DNA of 64,000 nt from a virus (lineage: Duplodnaviria > Caudoviricetes). Both the position numbers and the translations under genes were made by a program. Below the pieces are notes generated by a model. It did not search any database, had not been told where the DNA came from, and saw nothing but the letters and a program-made list of their open reading frames with translations. Shown here piece by piece: positions 1,169 through 24,390 of the stretch (position 1 is the first letter of the stretch; every line of letters starts with the position of its first letter). The stretch spans positions 1,691 to 65,690 of the IMG/VR virus record IMGVR_UViG_3300040751_000264. The stretch is one strand, 5' to 3'.

Positions 1169-1933
1169 TCACGATTTCCAAGAAACGCCCGTGTAGCCTG
1201 GAAGAACGTCATAGTCTATAGCAAAATGCTTTTTGATTATCTTAATTGATTTTGGAGACAGTTCTATGCTATCTCTTTCGCTTGCATTCAATCTTTGTAA
1301 CGGAACACTTTCTTCTATCCCTACCTCATCTAGAACATCCTGCCACTCATCATTAAGAACAGACAGATCTTTAATCATTCCAAGGTCTGAGGTAGATAGT
1401 GCTTCAAGCCTACGCACCTGTGGCCTAATAAAAGAAAAGTCGTCCTTAAATATATATCTTACAAATCCGTCTATTCCAGAAGAATTAATTACTGAATCTG
1501 CGTACCCGTGAACAAATGCTTCAGTGTATGGCCAAGCGTTGGGAAACTCTTGAGTCCTTATAATCTCTTTCCACCTCTGTCTATTTATTCTTCCAATGTG
1601 ATACTTAACGCTTGTATGGGAGAAAAAATATAACGATTTTATTAAGTCTATTGGATCTCTTACTACAGATATTTTTTTAAAGTCACCCCAGTTTTCTGGA
1701 AGAACAAAACTCTCTATGTCTTTAGCAGTAGAGTGTTTCCAAAGCATTGTTTTATTTACTTCATCTATGCTGTATCTGTCATATAGATTTTGCTGATATC
1801 TTTCACCATAGATTGTGCTGCCCATGATTATGTCTGACCAGTGTAGGTGTGGTTGCAAGGCTGTTTCTACGGATGTGCCGCCACACTTCTCTAGATGAAT
1901 AAAAACAAAGTTTCTTGATGGACTGATAATCAT
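1169..1933 (-). CDS. Sulfotransferase family protein (Sulfotransfer_2-like)
   Basis: FVFIHLEKCGGTSVE (5'-PSB loop) and VVRDPIDLIKSLYFF (3'-PB motif). Start moved to MIISP because the ORF-track start overlaps tRNA-Val. Confidence 0.8.
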   Translation of the reverse strand: MIISPSRNFVFIHLEKCGGTSVETALQPHLHWSDIIMGSTIYGERYQQNLYDRYSIDEVNKTMLWKHSTAKDIESFVLPENWGDFKKISVVRDPIDLIKSLYFFSHTSVKYHIGRINRQRWKEIIRTQEFPNAWPYTEAFVHGYADSVINSSGIDGFVRYIFKDDFSFIRPQVRRLEALSTSDLGMIKDLSVLNDEWQDVLDEVGIEESVPLQRLNASERDSIELSPKSIKIIKKHFAIDYDVLPGYTGVSWKS

Positions 1934-2384: not shown

Positions 2385-2966
2385 TCAGATAGGCATGAAA
2401 GAAATGTTGATAGCGTTTCTTTCTTGCATTGCAAGCAAGGTTTCCCTTGTGCCAATGTCATATCCACAAGTTATTCTATGGCCCTCATACTGACCGTTAG
2501 AATAAACTTTGTGTTGAACATCTGATGGGCCAATATAAATATTGCCCACCTTATTTTCAATCTCAAAGTTTTCAAACATGGTAACAGAGTCTTTCGGATC
2601 AATAGAAATGTATCCGTGACATGCCCAATCAAAGTGGGCGTGCCAATCTAATAGGTCATTTTCGTAGTGATAGTTTGCCCATGATTGCATCCATAGCGGC
2701 TCATCTGTTTGAAGATAGTCTCTAACAATATATTGCAAATCCTTGTATAGGTTGTAAAACATTTCATACCCCGCAGAGATAGCAAACAGGTTATAAACGT
2801 TATACCCCCATGTGGAATCAATGTCTGGGTATATTGATTTAAGTGAGTTGCGTGAACTTTCAATCTCACGAACAAATTCATCTTTGTTATCAATAATCTC
2901 AGAAGAACTATATACCTTATACCTTGGGCTTTCTCCTTCTTGCATCAGCGTTAGTCGTTCACTCAT
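2385..2966 (-). CDS. Putative 2OG-Fe(II) oxygenase-like protein
   Basis: WMQSWANYH...DWHAH...QHKV...RIT pattern (HxH...H...R) typical of phage double-stranded beta-helix oxygenases. Confidence 0.6.
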   Translation of the reverse strand: MSERLTLMQEGESPRYKVYSSSEIIDNKDEFVREIESSRNSLKSIYPDIDSTWGYNVYNLFAISAGYEMFYNLYKDLQYIVRDYLQTDEPLWMQSWANYHYENDLLDWHAHFDWACHGYISIDPKDSVTMFENFEIENKVGNIYIGPSDVQHKVYSNGQYEGHRITCGYDIGTRETLLAMQERNAINISFMPI

Positions 2967-2967
2967 G

Positions 2968-3582
2968 CTAGCCTCTGTAGTACCTTTCAAAGGTATCGCT
3001 ATTAATTGTCAAACCAAACCACGTTACCAGAACATACTTGTTTCCAGAGATGGGATGCCTAGCCTCATGTGAGTATGGGAATGTAGCAGGGAACAGCACA
3101 AGCCTACCCGCCTTTGGCTGCACACTAATATCAAATTGATCAAAGTATGTCTCCCCACCCTCTTCCACATCGTTTAGATATAGAATGGCAGACATTGCCC
3201 GTGGTGTATCTGGCCCAAAGTCATAGTGTGGCTTATAGAAACCGTCGCCAGCAAGGTACTCCAACATGGAGATCTTTTCCATATGGCTGAAGAAGATATC
3301 GTTGTCCTGTGCATACTTGTTAGCCTGAAGATAGATCTTCTGTGCTGTGCTAAAGAATACTAGCGGATTCTCAAAATGGACGGGAAACGGGAAAGAATTT
3401 GATCTGCGAGAATCAGTATCAACACTTCCATCTCCACCTAGAGCAGAGGGCATCCAGTTATCTGGGATACTGTTCGCAATATCAATAAGTTCTTGCGGGT
3501 TGTCAATTACATTATCAATAACCCTGATTCCAGGAAAGATATCTTCTCCCTCTGCAATCTCCACATCATTAACGTATAGCAT
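2968..3582 (-). CDS. Prolyl 4-hydroxylase-like 2OG-Fe(II) oxygenase
   Basis: FYKPHYD (HxD), ILYLNDVEEGGETYF, distal His (YSHEA), 2OG-binding Lys (GNKYVLVTW); strong RBS. Confidence 0.85.
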   Translation of the reverse strand: MLYVNDVEIAEGEDIFPGIRVIDNVIDNPQELIDIANSIPDNWMPSALGGDGSVDTDSRRSNSFPFPVHFENPLVFFSTAQKIYLQANKYAQDNDIFFSHMEKISMLEYLAGDGFYKPHYDFGPDTPRAMSAILYLNDVEEGGETYFDQFDISVQPKAGRLVLFPATFPYSHEARHPISGNKYVLVTWFGLTINSDTFERYYRG

Positions 3583-3609
3583 GTTTCTCCTTTTGTCAGT
3601 AGAATTTTA

Positions 3610-4263
3610 TCACAACTCTGCCTCTGAGTCTAGCCAGACTAGAGACATTGTTTTATTATGAATGACCCTAACACTTGGATCAAACCAAATCTTAAATCCA
3701 AACGACCTCGCCTTTGCACACCAAGCGGAGTCTTCTGTGGCATAAGACGCAACGGTTCCATCCTTGTTGAAAAGGAAGTTGTCGAACCACGGTCGCGGAA
3801 GTTGTTCAAACACACCTTGCTTTATACAGATAAAGCCAAAGCCGCAAGAGGTAACTATTGACTCCCTAGACACTGGTATCTGGTGTGGATAAGGAGAACT
3901 CACCTCGTCAAAGGAAATTGCAACTGTTCCATTTGTCTGCATATATGCACCTGTAACAATATCCCTTTCTGAACGATATAGTGTAAGAACATCTTCTGGC
4001 TCCCACTGAATATCAGAATCTATCCACATTATCTTGTTATATGTGAACTTTCCAGAGAAGGGCACTTCAGAATCAAACTGGTCATCATTTCTATCATTAA
4101 TTACCCTTTCTCTTGCGTGACGCAGAGTTGGTGATTCATAATTAATAAATTGCCAAGTTATCCCCTCTTCTTCTAAAACCTTAATGGTCTTAGTTAGGCT
4201 CCTGACAAATGCACCAGTGATCAAAGACCCTGGCGTTCCTATTACTATGTCGTAGTGTTCCAT
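3610..4263 (-). CDS. GT-A fold glycosyltransferase (GT2-like)
   Basis: IMWIDSDIQW (DxD), GFGFICIK, ATEDSAWC, WFDPSVRVIH. Confidence 0.8.
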   Translation of the reverse strand: MEHYDIVIGTPGSLITGAFVRSLTKTIKVLEEEGITWQFINYESPTLRHARERVINDRNDDQFDSEVPFSGKFTYNKIMWIDSDIQWEPEDVLTLYRSERDIVTGAYMQTNGTVAISFDEVSSPYPHQIPVSRESIVTSCGFGFICIKQGVFEQLPRPWFDNFLFNKDGTVASYATEDSAWCAKARSFGFKIWFDPSVRVIHNKTMSLVWLDSEAEL

Positions 4264-4276
4264 AACTTCCTTTCTG

Positions 4277-4356
4277 TGCCCGATGCTGGAATCGAACCAG
4301 CCATGCCAACGGCGACGGTTTTACAGACCGCTTCCCCACCTTGGGGACTATCGGGC
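4277..4356 (-). tRNA. trnY: tRNA-Tyr (GTA), atypical short D-arm
   Basis: GCCCGAT/ATCGGGC acceptor, GCGGT-CTGTAAA-ACCGT, long variable arm, GTTCGATTC. Confidence 0.85.
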
Positions 4357-4361
4357 TTAAG

Positions 4362-4434
4362 TGCCCCTGGCAGGAGTCGAACCTGCGACTTAAGCATTAG
4401 AAGTGCTCCACTCTGTCCTCTGAGTTACAGGGGC
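4362..4434 (-). tRNA. trnR: tRNA-Arg (TCT)
   Basis: GCCCCTG/CAGGGGC acceptor, GAGCA-CTTCTAA-TGCTT, GTTCGACTC. Confidence 0.95.
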
Positions 4435-4455
4435 GTAACATCAACTTCCCAAGCG

Positions 4456-4526
4456 AGCGGCTGACCAGAATCGAACTGGCGATAAGAGTTTGGAAGACTC
4501 TTGTGTTACCTCTACACCACAGCCGC
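4456..4526 (-). tRNA. trnG: tRNA-Gly (TCC)
   Basis: GCGGCTG/CAGCCGC acceptor, AGAGT-CTTCCAA-ACTCT, GTTCGATTC. Confidence 0.95.
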
Positions 4527-4533
4527 GAATAGG

Positions 4534-4731
4534 CTACCTTGTAGTCTTGGTCCACTGCAATTTGTATTGCTTTAGACCCATTCGATAGCACCTATTGTAC
4601 TCCTCTGCGTACTTCTTTTCAAGTGCCTCGCCTTGCTTGCCGCCAACAGACTTCTTGATAGAATCCATTGCCTTTTCTAGATCACGCAATGCACGCTGAT
4701 CTTCTTCTGTATAATCTTCTTTAGACTTCAA
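4534..4731 (-). CDS. Hypothetical protein (65 aa)
   Basis: Contiguous minus-strand ORF with GGAGG RBS and 4-nt overlap with the upstream gene. Confidence 0.6.
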   Translation of the reverse strand: MKSKEDYTEEDQRALRDLEKAMDSIKKSVGGKQGEALEKKYAEEYNRCYRMGLKQYKLQWTKTTR

Positions 4732-5216
4732 CTTGCTACCTCCAATAGTTCCTCGTTATACATTAATAGATGCGTAGGCCACACATAACTGCATTTATCG
4801 CAACATGAGATGGCCTCGTCATGCACGAACTCTGCATAAAACTCTGGGTCTTTATTATATAGATTATTACGATGGGATTGGTGGACACGCTCATCATTCC
4901 ACCACGGCGGCATTACGATGTTGCTTCCACGGTCCCAATTATCACTGTGCATCTTGGTGATTGCTGACCAGTTCTTCTCAGTAGCAATGCCACGAAACTC
5001 ACACTCTAGCATCATGTTCTCTAGATATGCGTAAAGAGCATTGTCATAGTTGCGCCACATCTTAACGGCAGGGTGATTGACCCAGCCACCCTTAGTACGG
5101 CCAGAGGACAGAATGTTGTAGATCTGACGACCCTCTAGCAGTTGCTTGTTAAGCCGCTTGTTGTCTAGCACAACAGCAGACTCATGCATGTCTGCATACG
5201 GAACAAAGGTTTGCAT
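4728..5216 (-). CDS. MSMEG_6728-family / pyrimidine-dimer DNA glycosylase-like protein
   Basis: MQTFVPY...LDNKRLNKQLLE...GWVNHPAVKMW...PPWW...VHQSHRNNL...KDPEFY signature. Confidence 0.8.
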   Translation of the reverse strand: MQTFVPYADMHESAVVLDNKRLNKQLLEGRQIYNILSSGRTKGGWVNHPAVKMWRNYDNALYAYLENMMLECEFRGIATEKNWSAITKMHSDNWDRGSNIVMPPWWNDERVHQSHRNNLYNKDPEFYAEFVHDEAISCCDKCSYVWPTHLLMYNEELLEVAS

Positions 5217-5217
5217 A

Positions 5218-5400
5218 TTAATCCATTTCAATCAGGTCCAACGGCGTTGGAGCAGTTAACTTAGTATGACAGTAAGCGCACTCACAGTCAAGTAGGTAGG
5301 AGGTAATTTCGTATGCTTCATCAAATTGAACCTGAACGGTAAATAAAGATGATCCACAGGTGACGCATTCCCTGGTGGGGATACCACGGCAGTCAAGCAT
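5218..5400 (-). CDS. Small zinc-ribbon protein
   Basis: CVTCGS...ECAYC; RBS AAGGAG. Confidence 0.7.
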   Translation of the reverse strand: MLDCRGIPTRECVTCGSSLFTVQVQFDEAYEITSYLLDCECAYCHTKLTAPTPLDLIEMD

Positions 5401-5423
5401 TATTACTCCTTATATATGACTTA

Positions 5424-5464
5424 TCCACGCCCCCAATTTTACAGGAGGCGTGGACAAATGTCAA
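5424..5464 (-). promoter_or_regulatory. SigA promoter TTGACA-N17-TAAAAT overlapping an inverted repeat (TCCACGCC...GGCGTGGA)
   Basis: -35 at 5459-5464, -10 at 5436-5441; hairpin 5424-5454 may also terminate the upstream gene. Confidence 0.8.
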
Positions 5465-5467
5465 TAA

Positions 5468-5641
5468 TTAGAGTCCTGCACGACTGAAGATTGCATCAAT
5501 TTCTTGGACATGGTGAGGGCCGAACTTTGCTGCGGCTTCCCTCTGCTTTGTCCACTCACGATGCATTGCACGGATAGCCTTTTCATCTTCGCTTGTGGCG
5601 TTTGTGAAAAGATTCTCAAAGGCACGCTTGAGTGACTTCAT
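5468..5641 (-). CDS. Small hypothetical protein (57 aa), not in ORF track
   Basis: MKSLKRAFENLF...HREWTKQREAAAKFGPHHVQEIDAIFSRAGL*; strong AAGGAGG RBS and TGATATGAT upstream. Confidence 0.75.
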   Translation of the reverse strand: MKSLKRAFENLFTNATSEDEKAIRAMHREWTKQREAAAKFGPHHVQEIDAIFSRAGL

Positions 5642-5724
5642 ATTTCCTCCTTTTGGGATTGTTGGGATATCACAATCATATCAGAGTTTTGTATGAGAGT
5701 CAAACAAAAACGATGTGATCTTCA

Positions 5725-6522
5725 TCAACTTGGCTTGCAGGGACAGTCCTTGCAATAGGTTGGAGCAGACTCCTTTGGCCTTGGCTCATAGTCATCGTTC
5801 TTAGAGAATGGAACCTTGCCAAAGATGGCCTTGTGAGCCTTCTCATCATACTCTCTGCGTTCCCAGCCCATCCAATCCTGCATTGCACGAATAGCGTTCT
5901 TTGGATATGCCTGCTCACCATCTGGAGCAACCTTGCCACTATAGAACCCTAGTTCCTTTAGTCTGCAAGCAAGCCTCCATGTTGCCTTATTCCTAGCACC
6001 TGATGCAATAGAATCTTCTAGAACATCAAAGAAGGGGATGTATCCGTCCCATACCCCGATCTCACCATCTATGAGGATTGGGATATCAAACTTCGATCCA
6101 TCTTGCTCTCCTTCTTTTGTGAAGGAAACATGCATGTGATGCTCATGACCCCAGTCACCGTTTCTCCATGTCCAGAACTGGCGTGGGTACGATCCGCTTG
6201 CAATTCTGTCTTCATATACCACATATTTGAGTCTAGAAGATCCTGGACGCTTGTTACGAGCATAAGCAATAATCTGCCTTGCCAGCCACTCGCTATCCAT
6301 CTTTGACCCTCTCAGATCCTCATCAATGTCTAGAGCATGAACATACCCACGACTATCTGGATTATGGTCGCTCTTCCTGGCGGAATGAGCAGAATCCCCT
6401 ACGATTCCATCTGACCTCTTATCTCTCTTAGGCCAACGGTCATCAATTTGCTTACGCAATGTTGTGATTCCTGCTACTGGCTTCCAACTCATTTTGCTCT
6501 CCTTTTTCTTTAAAAAACTCAT
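5725..6522 (-). CDS. Endolysin: Zn-peptidase (M15-like) domain plus probable peptidoglycan-binding domain
   Basis: GDSAHSARKSDHNPD...VHALDID...HEHHMHVSF; C-terminal LKELGFY...AIRAMQ. Alternative start at 6492. Confidence 0.75.
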   Translation of the reverse strand: MSFLKKKESKMSWKPVAGITTLRKQIDDRWPKRDKRSDGIVGDSAHSARKSDHNPDSRGYVHALDIDEDLRGSKMDSEWLARQIIAYARNKRPGSSRLKYVVYEDRIASGSYPRQFWTWRNGDWGHEHHMHVSFTKEGEQDGSKFDIPILIDGEIGVWDGYIPFFDVLEDSIASGARNKATWRLACRLKELGFYSGKVAPDGEQAYPKNAIRAMQDWMGWERREYDEKAHKAIFGKVPFSKNDDYEPRPKESAPTYCKDCPCKPS

Positions 6523-6659
6523 TTCTTTTCCATCGACTTTCTTATTCTATAAACGTCTGTGATCCAATTAGAAACAAGATGGTGATCTCCTTCTTCACAA
6601 GGAAGAAAGCATTGATGCGTTATACAAACATATTCACTATCGTCATCAAGTATATCCAT
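6519..6659 (-). CDS. Small Cys/His-rich hypothetical protein (46 aa)
   Basis: MDILDDDSEYVCITHQCFLPCEEGDHH...KK*; ATGA overlap with the endolysin. Confidence 0.5.
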   Translation of the reverse strand: MDILDDDSEYVCITHQCFLPCEEGDHHLVSNWITDVYRIRKSMEKK

Positions 6660-6682
6660 GGGCATCTCCAGACAAACATTAT

Positions 6683-6862
6683 TTATTCCATTTTATCATG
6701 TGTTGTATGAACATCTTGAACCTGCTTAAGTTGCTCTAACTCATCTTGCAGCCTATAAATTTCTGCTGTGAGATTGGCAATCTCAACCTCATATCCATGA
6801 ACCACCTTCGAATGTCTACTCAGAACATTGTTAAGTGTCTTTGTAACATATTCGTTATTCAT
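6683..6862 (-). CDS. Small coiled-coil protein (59 aa)
   Basis: MNNEYVTKTLNNVL...EIANLTAEIYRLQDELEQLKQ heptad pattern. Confidence 0.55.
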   Translation of the reverse strand: MNNEYVTKTLNNVLSRHSKVVHGYEVEIANLTAEIYRLQDELEQLKQVQDVHTTHDKME

Positions 6863-7061
6863 CTATTATCTCCAATTCATGATTCTCAAACATGCTTTTA
6901 CATACCTGGGCATTCGACCATCTCTCTGCTGATTTACGAGACAGAAACTTTGCCTTATTTATTGATGTTATTTGGTTTGACATAAATTCTTCAGACCATT
7001 CTTTTTTAAAAATGCTGGCCTGAATTATCAAACCTTTTCTACAAATTTTTGCAACATACAT
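6855..7061 (-). CDS. Hypothetical protein
   Basis: ORF track 6855..7082; ATG at 7061 has an AAAGGA RBS. Confidence 0.5.
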   Translation of the reverse strand: MYVAKICRKGLIIQASIFKKEWSEEFMSNQITSINKAKFLSRKSAERWSNAQVCKSMFENHELEIIDE

Positions 7062-7082
7062 GCTCGTTCCTTTTCCGAACAA

Positions 7083-7595
7083 TTATACATCAAAGCGTGC
7101 CCAGTAAGCACCCGTTATGTTGCCAAGCCAATGGTCTTGGATGCCAGGGAACGTGCTTAAAACCTCTTTGTGGCTCCAATCCTCTTTAACGTGCTCTTCA
7201 TAAGGATTGCCATTAATTGCATGTTGATGATAATTAATAATTGGAATAGAAATTACACCATACTTACATTTACGAGATGCCTTTGTCCAAACATCAAACG
7301 CCTCTTCTTGAGTCATATGCTCTAGAACATCGCCAAAGATTACTAAGTCATGATGATACTTGGTAAACTCTCTAATGTCTTCTTTGTATACCTTGTTGTA
7401 CTTATCCTTTAGAGAAAAGGTATCAATATATGGCTGCCAAATCTCTACTGCATCCATTGTAGGATTAAAACCCTTGTTGTAAAAATAATCTCTATATGTC
7501 CCTGAGCCAGCACCAACATCAAGGACTGTTTTAACTCTTGCCCTTTTTGCTTTTTCCATAATCCAAGGCTTTGTTTCAGGATGTGAAGTTCCCAT
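7083..7595 (-). CDS. Class I SAM-dependent methyltransferase
   Basis: VLDVGAGSG motif I, DAVEI, GDVLEHM. Confidence 0.85.
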   Translation of the reverse strand: MGTSHPETKPWIMEKAKRARVKTVLDVGAGSGTYRDYFYNKGFNPTMDAVEIWQPYIDTFSLKDKYNKVYKEDIREFTKYHHDLVIFGDVLEHMTQEEAFDVWTKASRKCKYGVISIPIINYHQHAINGNPYEEHVKEDWSHKEVLSTFPGIQDHWLGNITGAYWARFDV

Positions 7596-8202
7596 TTACA
7601 TACTCCTCCATTAATTTATTGTAATTAAGTTCTGATGTTACTCTGTGTGCAGGATGATAAAGGTGATAATCAAATCCATCAACGTAGTGTGCGTTGCCAA
7701 GTTTTGCCTTGATCAATATGTGAAAAGCATCGTCTTCTGCACCCCAACCAATAAAGCCTTCGTCCATTCCTCCAACCTTTTGCCAAAGGCTTTTCTTTAT
7801 TACATATGCTCCGCCTGTAAAATTCTTCTCTGGATCATTGATAAAACTGTCTGTGTTGGGCTTGAAGTTATTTTTACCAACATAAAAAGAGTTTGTTGCC
7901 TCTTCTGTTAGATATCCAAAGTGTGAGAAAGGCTTGACAAGGCAATCTTTTCTTGCCGCCACCTTGATGGCAGACTTTATCTGTGATATTTCTATATAGT
8001 TGTCTGCATCTATTAGAACAGCAACCTCAGATTCTGATTTTTCCACCCCTGCATTTCTCGCAGCAGAACGATTAAACTTTCCCTCATTGTCTCCTATTAC
8101 AACGTCAAACTCTTTTGAATAATAATCATACAAAAAATCAAAGTGTTTTCTCCTATAAACGCAGTCTGGATCTCTCCAGGGTAGGATTACTTGCTGCCTC
8201 AT
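7576..8202 (-). CDS. Glycosyltransferase (GT2 with GT7 C-terminal-like motif)
   Basis: FNRSAARNAG, LIDAD (DxD), GGMDEGFIGWGAEDD, HLYH. Confidence 0.85.
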   Translation of the reverse strand: MRQQVILPWRDPDCVYRRKHFDFLYDYYSKEFDVVIGDNEGKFNRSAARNAGVEKSESEVAVLIDADNYIEISQIKSAIKVAARKDCLVKPFSHFGYLTEEATNSFYVGKNNFKPNTDSFINDPEKNFTGGAYVIKKSLWQKVGGMDEGFIGWGAEDDAFHILIKAKLGNAHYVDGFDYHLYHPAHRVTSELNYNKLMEEYVNGNFTS

Positions 8203-9278
8203 TTTATATCTTCCTTATCACTATTATGACAGATACAATCACAAATTTCTTTTGCAAAGCAACGAGAGTGGTATCCTTCTCTGCAATAACCAGTCTTTGA
8301 TATTTCTACTAAATTAAAATCTTTGTCAAACTCAATCTCTTGAGTAACAAGTCCAAGATTTACTTTGTCAGATAAATCTTTTTCATAAAACTCTTCAAAG
8401 TTTATGCCAATCATCTCTTGATATTCAAGGTATTTTTGGTAGTCGCCTATGCCGAAAGTTCCCTGCTCCACTCCTAATAAAACATCTCTTTGCACACGTT
8501 GAGATCTCATCTCAATGTCTGTCCAGGATCTTCCAGCCATGTTGTCTTTCCATATTTTCGGACGCTCTTCTCTTTTATAGAAATGCCAACACACCATTTC
8601 GTTTGGTGCATAGATGTGCCAACCTCTTGTAAAGGCACGAATAGCAAAGCATAATTCCTCACCCATAAAGGATATTCTTTCATCATAAGGAATCTCTTCA
8701 ACAACCTTCCCTGGAGCAAATAACAGTCCTGCGAGAATTGTGTGGGAATAGTGTGGGGAAGACATGTCTTCAATCTTCTCACGGTTCCCTGCCCACACGC
8801 CTGTCCAAGTATTAACTACGGTTGTCCAAGATGGCTCGTCCCAAAAATCCTCATCTCCAAGGACGTAGTGGTCTGTTCCGTCTGTCAATGGCATGTATGG
8901 GGCAGGGAACTGGCTGAGAATAATCTTGTCTGTTCCTTGCTTTTCAACTGCTACATGATACATATCTATAAGTTTGGAATCCCATCCTTCAGCAAACCTC
9001 ATGTGGGAGTCTGTCTGAAAAAAGAAATCCTCGCCACGGTATTCTTCCACGGCGAGTTTTCTTGCATATCCTGCACCCTTTGCATCCTTAGCATGTACCT
9101 TTACTAAGATTAGTTGATCTTCTGGTATGAAGTCTAACTTTGGGTGATTGTTTCTAAGTTCCTGAGATATAACACAAATTGTTAGATCCTCTGGTCTGCT
9201 TGCATTCTCGTAAATGCTGCGAACAGTTTTCACTATTTCTTCATCACGATATGAAGCAATAGAAACAAATATGCTCAC
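8199..9278 (-). CDS. GT60/Gnt1-like (Skp1-hydroxyproline-type) GlcNAc transferase
   Basis: IFVSIASYRD, AKGAGYAR, FFQTDSHMRF..GWD..LI, AGLLFAPG, PYD...FMGEE...RAFTRGW..Y.P...WHFY are hallmark Gnt1/GT60 motifs. Confidence 0.85.
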   Translation of the reverse strand: MSIFVSIASYRDEEIVKTVRSIYENASRPEDLTICVISQELRNNHPKLDFIPEDQLILVKVHAKDAKGAGYARKLAVEEYRGEDFFFQTDSHMRFAEGWDSKLIDMYHVAVEKQGTDKIILSQFPAPYMPLTDGTDHYVLGDEDFWDEPSWTTVVNTWTGVWAGNREKIEDMSSPHYSHTILAGLLFAPGKVVEEIPYDERISFMGEELCFAIRAFTRGWHIYAPNEMVCWHFYKREERPKIWKDNMAGRSWTDIEMRSQRVQRDVLLGVEQGTFGIGDYQKYLEYQEMIGINFEEFYEKDLSDKVNLGLVTQEIEFDKDFNLVEISKTGYCREGYHSRCFAKEICDCICHNSDKEDIK

Positions 9279-9505
9279 TTAACAGGGTTCCTTTCAAGGA
9301 GCACTATTGCTCCATTTTGCTCAAGTGCCTTCTTTACCTTGATCATATATTCTACTGCTGCAATCTTTTGATCATGCTCTAGTTTGTAAAACTCAATCTC
9401 ATCTGCACGAACAGTAAGAAAGTCATCGTGATCAAAGATATCTACATGAAATCCCTTGGGAGGATTTAGAGATCTAACGGCCTTTGCCATCTCCATCGTA
9501 TACAT
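9275..9505 (-). CDS. Hypothetical protein
   Basis: ATG at 9505 with GGAGG RBS (MYTMEMAKAVRS...). Confidence 0.65.
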   Translation of the reverse strand: MYTMEMAKAVRSLNPPKGFHVDIFDHDDFLTVRADEIEFYKLEHDQKIAAVEYMIKVKKALEQNGAIVLLERNPVK

Positions 9506-9786
9506 TAGTTTACCTCCATTGTTAGGGACTCCCAAGTGTTTGACCAATCTTCTTTGGCCTTATGAGAGTTAAATTCCTTGTCTATTTTACCATCCTTCAA
9601 ATAGACACCTCCCCAAACTCCCCACTCTTTTCTAGAAACACCTGAGGCAAAACACTCCTGATTAACCTTGCATCTTGCACAGATGTTGTCTACAGACTTG
9701 GCAAGTTTTTGATCTTCTTCATACTTGTCAAAGAAGAGATTGGTATCCATTCCTAAGCATTCTGCATCATCCTTCCACCTGTGCAT
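9505..9786 (-). CDS. whiB: WhiB-family Fe-S transcription regulator
   Basis: W...A.C...LFF...ICARC.V..EC......EWGVWGG: four Cys plus the G(V/I)WGG turn. Confidence 0.9.
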   Translation of the reverse strand: MHRWKDDAECLGMDTNLFFDKYEEDQKLAKSVDNICARCKVNQECFASGVSRKEWGVWGGVYLKDGKIDKEFNSHKAKEDWSNTWESLTMEVN

Positions 9787-10726: not shown

Positions 10727-11071
10727 TTATTCCTCTCCGTATGCTTCTAACTCATCTAGTATGATGAGAAGTTCGTTCAACTTTCTTTTTGATAAAGACA
10801 TTGTATCAATTGGTTGTGCAGTAGAAAAGTCTGGCTCTGATATTACTTCTGCCTCATAAAAGACATTGTTTTTTACCCAGTAAGCCTTGTCATCTACTAC
10901 TGCTACTCTGATCACTCCCATTGAATCTTCGTTGACCCAATCTGGAATTAGATCTTCATTATCCAGATCAAAGTGATCGTCAAAGTCTACACCATTTTTA
11001 TTTTGTATGTATATTATAAGCAAAAGCAGCAACACTGTCAATACCCATGGGACAACCACAAGTATATTCAT
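10727..11071 (-). CDS. N-terminally membrane-anchored hypothetical protein
   Basis: MNILVVVPWVLTVLLLLLIIYI hydrophobic helix; TAATG overlap supports a start at 11071. Confidence 0.65.
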   Translation of the reverse strand: MNILVVVPWVLTVLLLLLIIYIQNKNGVDFDDHFDLDNEDLIPDWVNEDSMGVIRVAVVDDKAYWVKNNVFYEAEVISEPDFSTAQPIDTMSLSKRKLNELLIILDELEAYGEE

Positions 11072-11274: not shown

Positions 11275-11316
11275 CAATCATCACATCCTTTATAAAATTA
11301 TACCTTACATATTTCG

Positions 11317-11391
11317 TAGGGCGGGTGGGATTTGAACCCACAATCTTCCGCTTATAAGACGTATGCATTAACCAGATTATGCTACCGCCCC
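11317..11391 (-). tRNA. trnI: tRNA-Ile (TAT)
   Basis: GGGGCGG/CCGCCCT acceptor, discriminator A, anticodon loop CTTATAA, T-arm GTGGG-TTCAAAT-CCCAC; anticodon stem has an A-G mismatch. Confidence 0.85.
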
Positions 11392-22600: not shown

Positions 22601-22955
22601 AGCCTTCGTTCCAGGCAATCTCGTTCAACTTGCCAAGATTCTCTAGACCCTGGTCATTCTTGGCTAGGATAACAATGTGATTATAAACAAGGTCAAGTGG
22701 GGTAGTTCTTTCTGCCTTGTCTCGTTTATCAAATCTATCTGCGGTGATGTACCCTTCTACCCCCAGGATCGGCTTGATTCCCTGCTCCTTGGCTGCGCGA
22801 TACATTGGCCTATGTCCAGAAAGGGTTCCGTGATCTGTGATAGCAATGGCAGACATGCCATTTTCCTTTGCCCTTGTTGCATACTCTTCAGGTGTAGCAA
22901 CACCATCCATTAGACTGTAGTGGGTATGAACGTGAAGGGGTACATAGTTATTCAT
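19677..22955 (-). CDS. dnaE: DNA polymerase III alpha subunit
   Basis: PHP domain LHVHTHYSLMDG/ITDHG, GPGRGSSAGS, PDIDSD, HAAGVV, KIDALGL, YSFNKSH; no intein. Confidence 0.97.
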   Translation of the reverse strand: MNNYVPLHVHTHYSLMDGVATPEEYATRAKENGMSAIAITDHGTLSGHRPMYRAAKEQGIKPILGVEGYITADRFDKRDKAERTTPLDLVYNHIVILAKNDQGLENLGKLNEIAWNEGFYKKPRIDFEILEKYREGLIVTSACMSGLINKAIEVDDYAAAKRHLQWFSDRFGEDFYVEVMPHNVAGMNEALIDLADTQGHKLVVTPDCHHATVDQKVIQEIMLINNTHAKLQKDVTYDKSRKHEDMMERLDYLYGHDRMMSFNKFDIHLLSGDEMRQAMEENGGFREDMFANSLEIADKVEEYTIHRNLNLLPVEYKDPDKQIRKYAEDWLKDNNLDTNQEYVDRLEEELSVIKEKNFASYFVVVRNMLNWAKKNGIMVGPGRGSSAGSLVCYALGITDIDPIKHGLLFFRFIDIDRDDWPDIDSDIQDSRREEVKDYLEKQYKHVASIATFLQFKDKGVVRDVSRCFNIPLSDVNRALKTVDTWEEFVTSKNTAWFVQKYPEVVEYADKLRGRIRGTGVHAAGVVTSKTPISKIAPMETRNVTGTEGRLPVVAVDMEEAADIGLIKIDALGLKTLTVINDTLNIIEERTGKRPRLSEVNMEDPNVYNMLSDGYTKGVFQCEATPYTNLLVKMGVKKFDELVASNALVRPGAMNTIGKDYIARKQGKQSITYASPIMKEFTEDTYGTILYQEQVMLACTNLGGMTMGEANKVRKIIGKKKDAKEFDQFKELFIRNATGPLGGTAAEKMWHDFEAHAGYSFNKSHAVAYSTLSYWTAWLKYYYPLEFMFALLKNEKDKDARTEYLIEAKRMGIPLRLPHINDSDTDFKIEGKGIRFGLSAIKYISDTIAQRYIAARPFKSFAEVQEFTFTKGNGVNSRALEALRSVGALTFPDNPRNEEGVRNNLYQYLNLPEFNVQIPQHFHAYISSVDDFDEKGAFILMGVVRGIKRGKGWSRVEILDSTGSIGIFDEEETSIEAGKTYIILAGSNRIVEAVPVDEIRESDSPLIRFLNYKQLPYGQDEYYVLSFKPRTTKAGKRMASLVVADSGRELMSMIVFPSNFAMAYTRLEEGKAFKINYNLSKDEDMVFQEVVGE

Positions 22956-23677
22956 TAATTAAACTTCTTCCTTTGCCAAAATAGTTTCTTGTATGGCTGG
23001 GAAAAAACACTTCCCAGTTTCTGTATGTTCTTGTGATAGTTCTTGCTGTCAGGCTCTACTACTTCCATCTCCCAATCTTCTCTCTTGAAAGGTATGACCT
23101 GTAGTATTGGCGTACCGCGATGAATTACACCCTTAAATCCTTTCTTAACAAAGAAGGCGTATGGACTTCTTGTGGCGAATTTGTCGGTATCCACTATAGC
23201 GGTTACTGAATAAAAAGGCAAGTCATTTCTGTGCATAGGATGAACAAACATTGTGCTGTATCCCTCATCTGTTCGTACCCCCCAGTATGTCTGCCACTTC
23301 AAAGCCTGCCTATGAAAATCAAACATGGACTGATATCCATTAGTCTGAATGGGATCGTGATTTGTGATAAAGTCAAACTCAGCGTCTGTGATTCTGGAGC
23401 CATCTCCGAATGTTCCAGTGTCGTACTTTATGGTATCTCCTGTGGCATCTATAAAAACATCTCCAGGAAGGTACATCGTATATCCAAACGCCATTGCATC
23501 ATTTACTGCTGGGCAGTCTCTGATTGTGCCAATCTTTCTTACGCCAGACTTACCATGAATCTTTGGATCTACAAACTTTGGCATATCCTTGAACCATTTT
23601 GGAAAAGCATTGATTGCTGGCTCTGGATGTGGACAGCCTAATTCGTCAAACAGTTCTTCAAAATAAATCTTTGGCAC
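22955..23677 (-). CDS. Hypothetical protein (CPAV-motif family, possibly dUTPase-like beta fold)
   Basis: PKWFK...TIRDCPAVNDAM..GY...VDTD...IHRGTPILQVIPFKREDW; GTG start with AGGAG RBS. Confidence 0.7.
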   Translation of the reverse strand: MPKIYFEELFDELGCPHPEPAINAFPKWFKDMPKFVDPKIHGKSGVRKIGTIRDCPAVNDAMAFGYTMYLPGDVFIDATGDTIKYDTGTFGDGSRITDAEFDFITNHDPIQTNGYQSMFDFHRQALKWQTYWGVRTDEGYSTMFVHPMHRNDLPFYSVTAIVDTDKFATRSPYAFFVKKGFKGVIHRGTPILQVIPFKREDWEMEVVEPDSKNYHKNIQKLGSVFSQPYKKLFWQRKKFN

Positions 23678-23696
23678 ATTAACTCCTATTGATAAT

Positions 23697-23721
23697 GGGG
23701 GAGGGCGCAGTGCCCTCCCCC
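23697..23721 (-). terminator. GC-rich hairpin after the SSB gene
   Basis: GGGGGAGGGC-GCAGT-GCCCTCCCCC. Confidence 0.7.
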
Positions 23722-23727
23722 GCAACA

Positions 23728-24390
23728 TTACCAATCAATGTTGGTTGCAGATGCTGTCGATGCTGGAGCATCAAATCCTAGATAGTATGATTCCTGCTCT
23801 GCATAAGGAACCTCACGAACTACCTTCTCTAGATTGAATGGTTCGACACCAGTCCAGTCGTGCTTTTCTGTGTCTGGATCTCCTGGAAGCAGAATATAAG
23901 TAGTGTCCGTTCCAGTGCCTTGACGCTTCATGCGCCATGGGCGGTTGGTAATTGAGCCAGTATCAATTGCATATTCACGCAAGGTGTTGAATGCAGATTG
24001 CTTTCCTACGCCCTGTGACCATACAGCAACATATGGATCTTCTATACCATCGTCTACAAGGAGATTAGTGTAGAAGCGGAAGCGAGCACGCCAGCCACTC
24101 TTAGGCTCCTTGCGATACATCTCACAGCCAAAGCAGCGACCTTCTGAGTCCTGCGTACATACAGCCTTGCGCTTGTAATCCTTGGGGTTTGTGTGCTCAG
24201 AAACAACGATTGCTAGATCTCTCTCCTGATCGTAGTGAGGGGAATCCTCATCAAGTTCATTGACAAAGCGAACCTTTACGCTCTGACTATCTTCCAACTT
24301 AAGCCAACGAACCTTTGCTCCACCCTCGCCAGACGCTGATGGACGGTCCATGGCCTTCTCCATTTCCTTTAGACCCTTCATAATACCCAT
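23728..24390 (-). CDS. Single-stranded DNA-binding protein (gp32-like)
   Basis: VRWLKL..SQSVKVRF, Zn-type C...CFGC, KRQGTGTDTTY, acidic/aromatic tail NIDW; lies beside primase and polymerase. Confidence 0.7.
   Translation of the reverse strand: MGIMKGLKEMEKAMDRPSASGEGGAKVRWLKLEDSQSVKVRFVNELDEDSPHYDQERDLAIVVSEHTNPKDYKRKAVCTQDSEGRCFGCEMYRKEPKSGWRARFRFYTNLLVDDGIEDPYVAVWSQGVGKQSAFNTLREYAIDTGSITNRPWRMKRQGTGTDTTYILLPGDPDTEKHDWTGVEPFNLEKVVREVPYAEQESYYLGFDAPASTASATNIDW

Follow-up and report, generated by a model that had tools for sequence, protein, structure and literature searches.

The DNA analysed here is a window of 64,000 nucleotides from the virus record IMGVR_UViG_3300040751_000264 (Duplodnaviria; Caudoviricetes), nearly all of the 65,690 bases of a record estimated to be 61% complete. 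Two groups of genes in it concern us (Table 1), both, like every gene discussed, on the minus strand and numbered as in an original prediction made from the sequence alone. Module A (9278-7083) is a run of three overlapping genes for a GT60-family glycosyltransferase (GT), a GT2/GT7C-like glycosyltransferase and an S-adenosylmethionine (SAM)-dependent methyltransferase. Module B (4263-2385) consists of genes for a GT-A-fold glycosyltransferase, a prolyl-4-hydroxylase (P4H)-type oxygenase and a second oxygenase-like protein; the sulfotransferase gene at 1933-1169 may also belong to it. In Dictyostelium and Toxoplasma, PhyA hydroxylates a proline of Skp1, the GT60 enzyme Gnt1 adds N-acetylglucosamine (GlcNAc) and further glycosyltransferases extend the glycan. 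The original prediction had joined the phage genes into one such pathway of hydroxyproline (Hyp) O-glycosylation: the P4H would act on, for example, a polyproline tail protein, GT60 would add GlcNAc, the GT2-like enzyme would extend the glycan and the methyl- and sulfotransferases would tailor it. The gene families, and the presence of the P4H in a conserved cassette with a glycosyltransferase (the GT-A enzyme), stood up to our searches; the pairing of the P4H with GT60 did not. With moderate confidence, we read the region as two modules: a P4H-independent GT60 cassette resembling a mycobacteriophage operon, and an accessory hydroxylase/GT-A module, the targets of both being ones that we infer.

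Table 1 Features of the window discussed in the text (aa, amino acids; ORF, open reading frame; 2OG, 2-oxoglutarate; pLDDT, predicted local distance difference test score).
Feature	Coordinates	Strand	Evidence or context
GT60-family glycosyltransferase, 359 aa	8199..9278	-	PF11397, 172.9 bits (cut-off 21), E 1.7e-50
GT2/GT7C-like glycosyltransferase, 208 aa	7576..8202	-	PF10111, 1.7e-10; PF02709 (Glyco_transf_7C), 3e-10; PF00535, 5e-6; phrog_1721 'galactosyl transferase', 4.6e-32
SAM-dependent methyltransferase, 170 aa	7083..7595	-	Only Methyltransf_11 above cut-off, 23.4 against 21.2 bits
GT-A-fold glycosyltransferase, 217 aa	3610..4263	-	phrog_1574, 8.5e-48; no Pfam match; AlphaFold2 model
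P4H-type 2OG/Fe(II) oxygenase, 204 aa	2968..3582	-	PF13640 (2OG-FeII_Oxy_3), E 7.6e-15
Second oxygenase-like protein, 2OG-FeII_Oxy_5 type	2385..2990	-	phrog_2696, 2.2e-40; phrog_81, 2.8e-11; overlaps the end of the P4H gene
Putative sulfotransferase	1169..1933 (or to 1987)	-	PF03567 (Sulfotransfer_2), 22.8 against 22 bits, E 1.2e-4, marginal; phrog_3347, 2.5e-6
Tail-module protein with polyproline linker P8-S-P5-G-P12	30283..30894	-	Flanked by genes for a minor tail and a tail-like protein
dUTPase-fold protein (phrog_7084, DUF6065-like)	22955..23734	-	AlphaFold2 model, pLDDT 88
Small conserved ORF	9275..9547	-	Context gene; overlaps the GT60 start by 4 nt; no Pfam or PHROG family match
WhiB-like regulator	9505..9786	-	Context gene; PF02467, E 4.8e-13
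DenV-like pyrimidine-dimer glycosylase	4728-5231	-	Upstream of the GT-A and oxygenase genes
Promoter-like site	11013..11041	-	12/12 sigma-70-like consensus positions, pattern match only; upstream of the run ending in GT60-GT2-methyltransferase
Promoter-like site	5436..5464	-	11/12 consensus positions, pattern match only; upstream of the DenV-like gene, tRNAs, GT-A, P4H and second oxygenase
Seven tRNA genes (Asn, Val, Thr, Tyr, Arg, Gly, Ile)	452-524, 1937-2083, 4276-4526, 11316-11391	-	Among accessory genes

The predicted GT60-like protein matched the GT60 family far above its cut-off. It contains a DxH motif with a downstream His, and D90, H92 and H232 are invariant in alignments of core-type sequences, of paralogues and of the two mixed; the DxH motif has a metal-binding role. 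The residues conserved in at least 95% of 120 homologues are these three together with C332, H337, C340, C346, C348, C350 and H351, which form a C-terminal Cys/His cluster (C-H-C-C-C-C-H, residues 332-351) that marks the core-type GT60 and is absent from four aligned paralogues. The cluster is probably a metal-binding module. A phmmer search of the PDB with GT60 returned no match. GT60 is likely to be the initiating transferase; according to PMC6939170, the characterised members of the family are polypeptide transferases, and Thr-specific enzymes are among them. Among cultured phages, a tblastn search found it in 4 of 50,697 records, all of them Xanthomonas or Stenotrophomonas jumbo phages. 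The jumbo phages XacN1 and RAS14 have a carbamoyltransferase gene after the GT60-like gene, and the flanks of that gene contain neither an annotated oxygenase nor a match to the P4H hidden Markov model (HMM).

The other two genes of Module A also belong to the families that had been predicted, the methyltransferase by a match to Methyltransf_11 alone. Overlaps of 4 nt (GT60 and GT2-like) and 20 nt (GT2-like and methyltransferase) join the run. The GT2/GT7C-like protein, likely an elongating transferase, has tblastn matches in 374 cultured actinophage records, including 349 mycobacteriophages.

Relatives of the window phage were gathered through GT60 (11 loci) and the terminase (51 loci), and the 26 longest records (13.8-105.8 kb) were searched whole. 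The place of GT60 in these relatives is fixed: it follows the terminase, a dCMP deaminase, WhiB and the small ORF. This small ORF precedes GT60 in all relatives and is kept also in the GT60-less record G010. PF11397 was found in 18 of the 26 records and in all five that are at least 92% complete. Among the eight records without it, five stop less than 2 kb past TerL, one stops just before the place of GT60, one is undetermined, and G010 is the only one in which the place is present.

What follows GT60 varies. The window shares the GT2/GT7C-like and methyltransferase genes, as a co-inherited pair, with L003, L006, L012, L013, L076 and L367. A GT2-like gene follows in L004, where the sequence then ends, and divergent GT2-like genes (26-29% identity) follow in L007, L010 and L075. 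The genes after GT60 in L077 are a Gb3_synth/GT32-like gene, a Methyltransf_24 gene and a weak GT25 match, and those in L080 are a GT2/GT7C-like gene (54% identical), a PF00535 GT2 gene and a ferritin gene. No cassette follows in L005, L008, L009, G006, G007 or G008, and the viral locus L349 has a methyltransferase fused to GT60. Module A is characterised by its family membership, fixed place, near-universal presence and variable downstream cassette, and by its independence from any phage P4H.

In Module B, the P4H contains LYLNDVEEGGET, and none of the variation among 27 homologues touches the predicted HxD...H...K residues, the iron triad and 2OG-binding Lys (H119, D121, H172 and K182). All 12 PDB matches of the family profile at E ≤1e-3 are prolyl hydroxylases: the best, over almost the full length, is the Bacillus anthracis P4H (2e-16), and further matches include 5c5t (E 4e-7), Chlamydomonas enzymes, P3H1, human C-P4H alpha-2, Pseudomonas PPHD and P4H-TM. 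Only one (4iw3, E 1e-4) is of the PHD type, and by these matches the enzyme appears nearer to the collagen, algal and viral type than to the PHD/PhyA type. Single-sequence PDB matches to 'heat-labile enterotoxin B chain' (E ~1e-3) were set aside as chance, as they disappeared with the family profile. An exact-peptide scan of viral contigs for close relatives of the P4H returned distant matches only. The structure 5c5t, which we take to be the P4H of chlorovirus PBCV-1, offers a virus-encoded precedent of the same sequence type, albeit from a eukaryotic virus; we know of no glycosyltransferase linked to it.

The GT-A gene lies directly upstream of the P4H gene, as predicted, with a gap of 27 nt. 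The AlphaFold2 model of its product (35-sequence alignment, pLDDT 86) has a GT-A fold; its best solved match in Foldseek is STIV A197 (E 3.9e-9), followed by many GT-A enzymes, and the matches listed from the 188 at E ≤1e-3 are nearly all GT-A glycosyltransferases or nucleotidyltransferases. The sequence WIDSD, which includes the DxD motif D82-S-D84, is invariant. We considered whether this protein could be a cryptic GT60: an hhalign comparison with the GT60 paralogues gave a probability of 1.7%, and it therefore is not. The model also matches the glycosyltransferase domains of COLGALT1 and LH3 and Mimivirus R699 (E 4e-6 to 1e-5), and glycosylation of collagen hydroxylysine by these enzymes shares the logic of a hydroxylase combined with a GT-A enzyme. 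However, these matches are not better than those to the unrelated Mnn9 and GlfT2, the window-phage oxygenase is of the prolyl type, and a search for collagen repeats in the record found none.

The second oxygenase-like gene had been missed by the original prediction. Its product matches PF13759 at E 0.005, under the cut-off, while viral atlas clusters carry PF13759 in 22-25% of their members; phmmer against the PDB gave no match. For the predicted sulfotransferase, which passes its family cut-off marginally, the start at 1933 is preferred over 1987 because tRNA-Val occupies 1937-2010. Its homologues occur in G001, G002, L199, L200 and G025.

The order of the three genes GT-A, P4H and second oxygenase is kept in the six close relatives compared, and the trio is conserved in G026, L198-L201 and L367. 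GT-A is upstream of the P4H in all five that have that flank (L075, L199, L200, L201 and L367; L198 has no sequence upstream of the P4H), and the second oxygenase is downstream in 6/6. Roughly 620 P4H and 335 GT-A protein clusters were collected, along with some 600 of GT60; in 13 or more cases a P4H cluster and a GT-A cluster have a longest source sequence of equal length, which indirectly fits a shared cassette. The GT-A family also occurs without a P4H: the near-complete relative G006 has two copies in an 8-kb glyco-island (L099:1-8112) made up of a sulfotransferase, the two GT-A genes, a DUF6065-like gene and four further glycosyltransferase genes (GT2, GT4-like, GT17 and GT2-TPR); this relative has no PF13640 oxygenase. 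In cyanophages, the family is found in 102 cultured records. Of seven that were sampled, three have a gene annotated as a 2OG oxygenase no more than 3 kb from GT-A, and one of the seven matched the narrow P4H HMM; the association of GT-A with oxygenases is only partial in cyanophages. A DenV-like gene stands upstream of the GT-A and oxygenase genes in the window and likewise in cyanophage P-SSM2 (L360), where the order is denV, oxygenase, GT-A homologue, oxygenase.

The original prediction invited a test of whether P4H and GT60 occur together in related phages. The two are not inherited together in the records searched: PF13640 was detected in five of the 26 and in none of the five that are at least 92% complete, all of which carry GT60. 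Searching outwards from the P4H, we found a GT60 HMM match no more than 10 kb away at 5 of 80 viral loci and, counting two marginal cases, at 3 of 80 metagenome loci. In the window itself the two families lie within 8 kb of one genome, the genes being 4.6 kb apart and in different gene runs, and the conserved glycosyltransferase neighbour of the P4H is GT-A rather than GT60.

A P4H could also be supplied by the host. The contig L367 (57 kb), which was binned with a metagenome-assembled genome (MAG) of Aquiluna, has the gene order of the window from terminase-GT60-GT2-methyltransferase through GT-A-P4H-oxygenase, and this single binned contig gives an Aquiluna-like member of the Microbacteriaceae as a lead to the host. 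Of 61 genomes sampled from the family to which this MAG belongs, two had a PF13640 match, one of them being that of the phage-like contig itself; a host-supplied P4H is therefore unlikely, provided that the host lead is right.

A tree places the two kinds of GT60 apart. The FastTree phylogeny, with a midpoint root, was built on 299 columns from 140 GT60 domains, after removal from 193 sequences of the 53 whose domain match covered fewer than 180 positions. It puts all 34 core-type viral GT60s in one clade (support 0.99), none of them P4H-associated or P4H-fused. The 24 P4H-associated GT60s, with phage paralogues, the SAR86 pairs and the Kordiimonas fusion described below among them, all fall outside this clade. 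Core GT60 and P4H are separately inherited modules, and a single pathway is not supported for the GT60 of this phage.

Coupling of P4H-like and GT60 domains at the family level is nevertheless real in other organisms. With GT60-like paralogues as queries, 80 viral loci were recovered and then clustered at 90% identity. A P4H-like gene lies within 3 kb in 7 of the 26 paralogue-type clusters and in 0 of the 11 core-type clusters. A scan of bacterial genomes gave 121 GT60 relatives, with a P4H-like gene adjoining GT60 in 4 of 79 loci (80 minus the phage-like contig): two divergent pairs in SAR86, a pair in a betaproteobacterial MAG and a fusion in Kordiimonas sediminis. The fusion (L437:5263-7890) is a protein of 875 aa that joins PF13640, PF11397 and a tubulin-tyrosine-ligase-like (TTL) domain. 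A library search with it gave 14,181 matches at E ≤1e-3; among the best 40 of the 150 listed, which were scanned with Pfam, 14 join PF11397 to a 2OG oxygenase (11 with PF13640, three with PF13661 only) and 10 are P4H-TTL proteins without GT60. Protist fusions of PhyA with Gnt1-like regions are described in PMC6437050.

As to substrates, the predicted polyproline linker of the tail-module protein is present. The C-terminal domain of this protein is conserved and the linker hypervariable in eight relatives, among which no association of linker composition with P4H was visible. Two complete relatives that lack P4H, G001 and G008, have a proline-rich linker, as does G010; the linker is poly-Gly in G002 (~20 G) and Ser/Pro-rich in G003, G006 and G007, and G011, with its three P4H-like genes, has one made of Thr/Asn/Pro repeats. 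The tail protein is a plausible candidate substrate of the P4H where a P4H is present. Long Pro/Thr-rich linkers (PTPTPT...) occur in proteins of G001 (8454-9311), G002 (89901-90617) and G006 (84355-85149), one of them with an Ice_binding-like domain, and could possibly be sites of O-glycosylation.

In the two-module reading, Module A would combine a lineage-core GT60 with replaceable elongating and tailoring enzymes, here the GT2/GT7C-like protein and the methyltransferase. GT60 would put the first sugar, N-acetylhexosamine by family analogy, on a hydroxyl that exists without hydroxylation, such as that of a protein Ser/Thr or of a sugar in an envelope polymer; the GT2-like enzyme would extend the glycan and the methyltransferase would cap it. 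The acceptors would most likely be phage virion proteins, as for the Che8/Llama type of operon, which shares the GT2-like enzyme. Both are actinophage systems with a compact run of transferases and a methyltransferase. The GT2/GT7C-like protein is 29% identical to gp109 of Llama (Cheoctovirus) over 187 residues (E 7e-21), and gp109 lies in a run with gp108 (glycosyltransferase/methyltransferase) and gp110. Che8 and Rita, which are related to Llama, carry glycans on their major capsid proteins that form a glycan shield, according to PMC11256854. The systems differ in that the initiating enzyme of the window phage is GT60 and that its system is known from genes alone; gp108 and gp110 have no homologue in the window phage (no BLASTP match better than E 0.2).

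Module B would be a sporadic accessory cassette, in which a collagen/algal-type P4H hydroxylates a proline-rich protein segment, the polyproline tail linker being one candidate, and the adjacent GT-A enzyme glycosylates the new hydroxyl. Such coupling of hydroxylase and GT-A is plausible.

Several points weigh against this division or its details. The GT60 cassette adjoins WhiB and dCMP deaminase without structural-gene neighbours, and the six other window proteins compared with the Llama operon, GT60 and the methyltransferase among them, had no match there. The P4H-GT60 coupling seen elsewhere means that a contribution of the P4H to GT60 acceptor sites is also possible in this phage. The related records are not independent samples. 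Longest source sequences of equal length, ~100 kb, suggest that both genes may be present in certain near-complete relatives from other collections; one case is that of GT60 clusters P0054/P0056 and P4H cluster P0168, at 107,914 bases. The host assignment comes from one binned contig, and the acceptors of both modules are candidates that we infer.

A broader version of the two-module reading, which we regard as tentative and less likely than not, is that phages and some bacteria have their own hydroxyproline O-glycosylation, based on a collagen/algal-type P4H with a dedicated glycosyltransferase, beside a separate, P4H-independent core GT60 system. The dedicated enzyme would be the phrog_1574 GT-A protein here, a GT60-like paralogue in other aquatic phages and the fused P4H-GT60-TTL protein in Kordiimonas; proline-rich linkers of virion or other proteins would be hydroxylated, then glycosylated and sometimes sulfated. 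The original prediction knew of no Hyp-linked system in phages, and the open literature that we searched, which leaves out most subscription journals, describes neither a phage Hyp-glycosylation system nor a core role of GT60 among actinophage genes. A paper that names PF11397 concerns a brown alga, and one that names GT60 together with phages does no more than list it with other CAZy genes.

Rather unlikely, in our view, is that the transferases have their acceptors in the host envelope (cell-wall polysaccharide, a teichoic-acid-like polymer or lipoglycan) and so block superinfection or aid release, while the P4H acts on an unrelated protein of host or phage. The orientation of GT60 together with the early-type genes WhiB and dCMP deaminase would suit this, as would the large glyco-islands of relatives such as G006, the GH10/39-like hydrolases of others and the wide occurrence of GT60 homologues in bacteria described above. 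Glycosyltransferases of freshwater actinophages are proposed to change cell-wall glycosylation in PMC10202952. However, a Pfam search of the cassette showed no membrane-anchoring or lipid-carrier enzymes, the characterised GT60s of PMC6939170 act on polypeptides, and the cultured homologues of the GT2-like enzyme lie in operons that PMC11256854 ties to virion glycosylation.

The single pathway of the original prediction appears improbable. It draws on the proximity of both families in the window, on the Kordiimonas fusion, SAR86 and betaproteobacterial pairs, paralogue-type clusters, library fusions and protist fusions, and on a real polyproline protein combined with a P4H of a type that, among its solved relatives, targets proline-rich or collagen-like peptides. 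These points are outweighed by the presence of GT60 without P4H in all five near-complete relatives, the core-type clade, the scarcity of GT60 around P4H genes, the rarity of PF13640 in candidate hosts, the GT-A neighbour of the P4H and the proline-rich linkers of P4H-less G001 and G008. The comparison with the Skp1 pathway (PhyA, Gnt1/GT60 and PgtA) divides similarly. Like it, the phage has a P4H-family oxygenase and GT60 in one genome, with a GT2-type enzyme after GT60, and the coupling of P4H and GT60 in fusions and gene pairs exists at the family level. Unlike it, the P4H and GT60 of the window phage are neither co-inherited, adjacent nor fused, and by its solved relatives, one of PHD type among them, the P4H appears nearer to the collagen, algal and viral type. 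The phage record has no match to the Skp1 family PF01466, though the control also matched nowhere.

A further proposal is DNA modification of the T4 or base J kind: the oxygenase would hydroxylate a base, the transferases would add sugar to it and the dUTPase-fold protein would tune nucleotide pools. In a VIA comparison of the model of this protein, the top 22 rows (Z 9.4-5.6) are all dUTPase, dCTP-deaminase or related chains and the next row has Z 4.6; the root-mean-square deviation is 3.4-5.6 with 119-130 residues aligned, and the best Foldseek E is 1.4e-3. D182 is at least 90% conserved in the consensus GIVDxD, which we take to resemble dUTPase motif III, and D184 is present in 87% of a wider set of 51 sequences. 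Paralogue-type GT60, a UDP-sugar enzyme, usually has a gene of the phrog_7084/DUF6065-like family beside it (16 of 26 clusters), and core-type GT60 has one in 3 of 11 clusters. DNA glycosylation is among the roles proposed for actinophage glycosyltransferases in PMC10202952, and Module B stands beside a DenV-like repair gene, as in P-SSM2. On the other side, the oxygenase is of the PF13640 type with solved relatives that are prolyl hydroxylases only, and GT60 occurs without a PF13640 oxygenase in four relatives of 94% completeness or more. The ThyA-like hydroxymethylase family PF00303 was found in none of five records, while the control matched 10 of 14 genomes; Tet_JBP (PF12851) was likewise found in none of the five, though its control also gave no match. 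The complete relative G001 encodes ThyX, and ThyX together with dCMP deaminase indicates ordinary thymidine. DNA is an unlikely target of modification, and hypermodification by these enzymes seems to us very improbable.

The remainder of the window shows a siphovirus-type gene set: portal, protease, major capsid protein, a tape measure protein of 2,649 aa, minor tail proteins, a replication module and a large terminase, which is 54.7% identical to those of ~130-kb Streptomyces phages. The G+C content is ~41%. The WhiB-like gene indicates an actinobacterial host, and these features point to an uncultured actinobacterial siphovirus. Modules A and B are ~2.8 kb apart, separated by a conserved ORF of 265 aa, the DenV-like gene and three tRNAs. 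Perfect matches to TTGACA-17-TATAAT occur three times on the minus strand (11013-11041, 2354-2382 and 661-689), and the promoter-like matches likely divide the region into separate transcription units.

The pathway model that our result corrects is appealing but draws too much together. To date, glycosylation of proteins by phage enzymes has been demonstrated in a few mycobacteriophages. The system described here has a different putative initiating family, GT60, which belongs to the core gene set of an abundant, uncultured lineage of aquatic actinophages yet is very rare in cultured phages. The swappable tailoring cassette after GT60 indicates strong diversifying pressure on the phage-made glycan. 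Prolyl hydroxylases recur beside glycosyltransferases in phages and bacteria, which raises the question of whether prokaryotic viruses make hydroxyproline glycans; three proteins, all small and soluble, and a polyproline substrate that occurs naturally make this question directly accessible. If it exists, phage and bacterial hydroxyproline O-glycosylation would give prokaryotes and their viruses a counterpart of the Skp1 or extensin-type modification.

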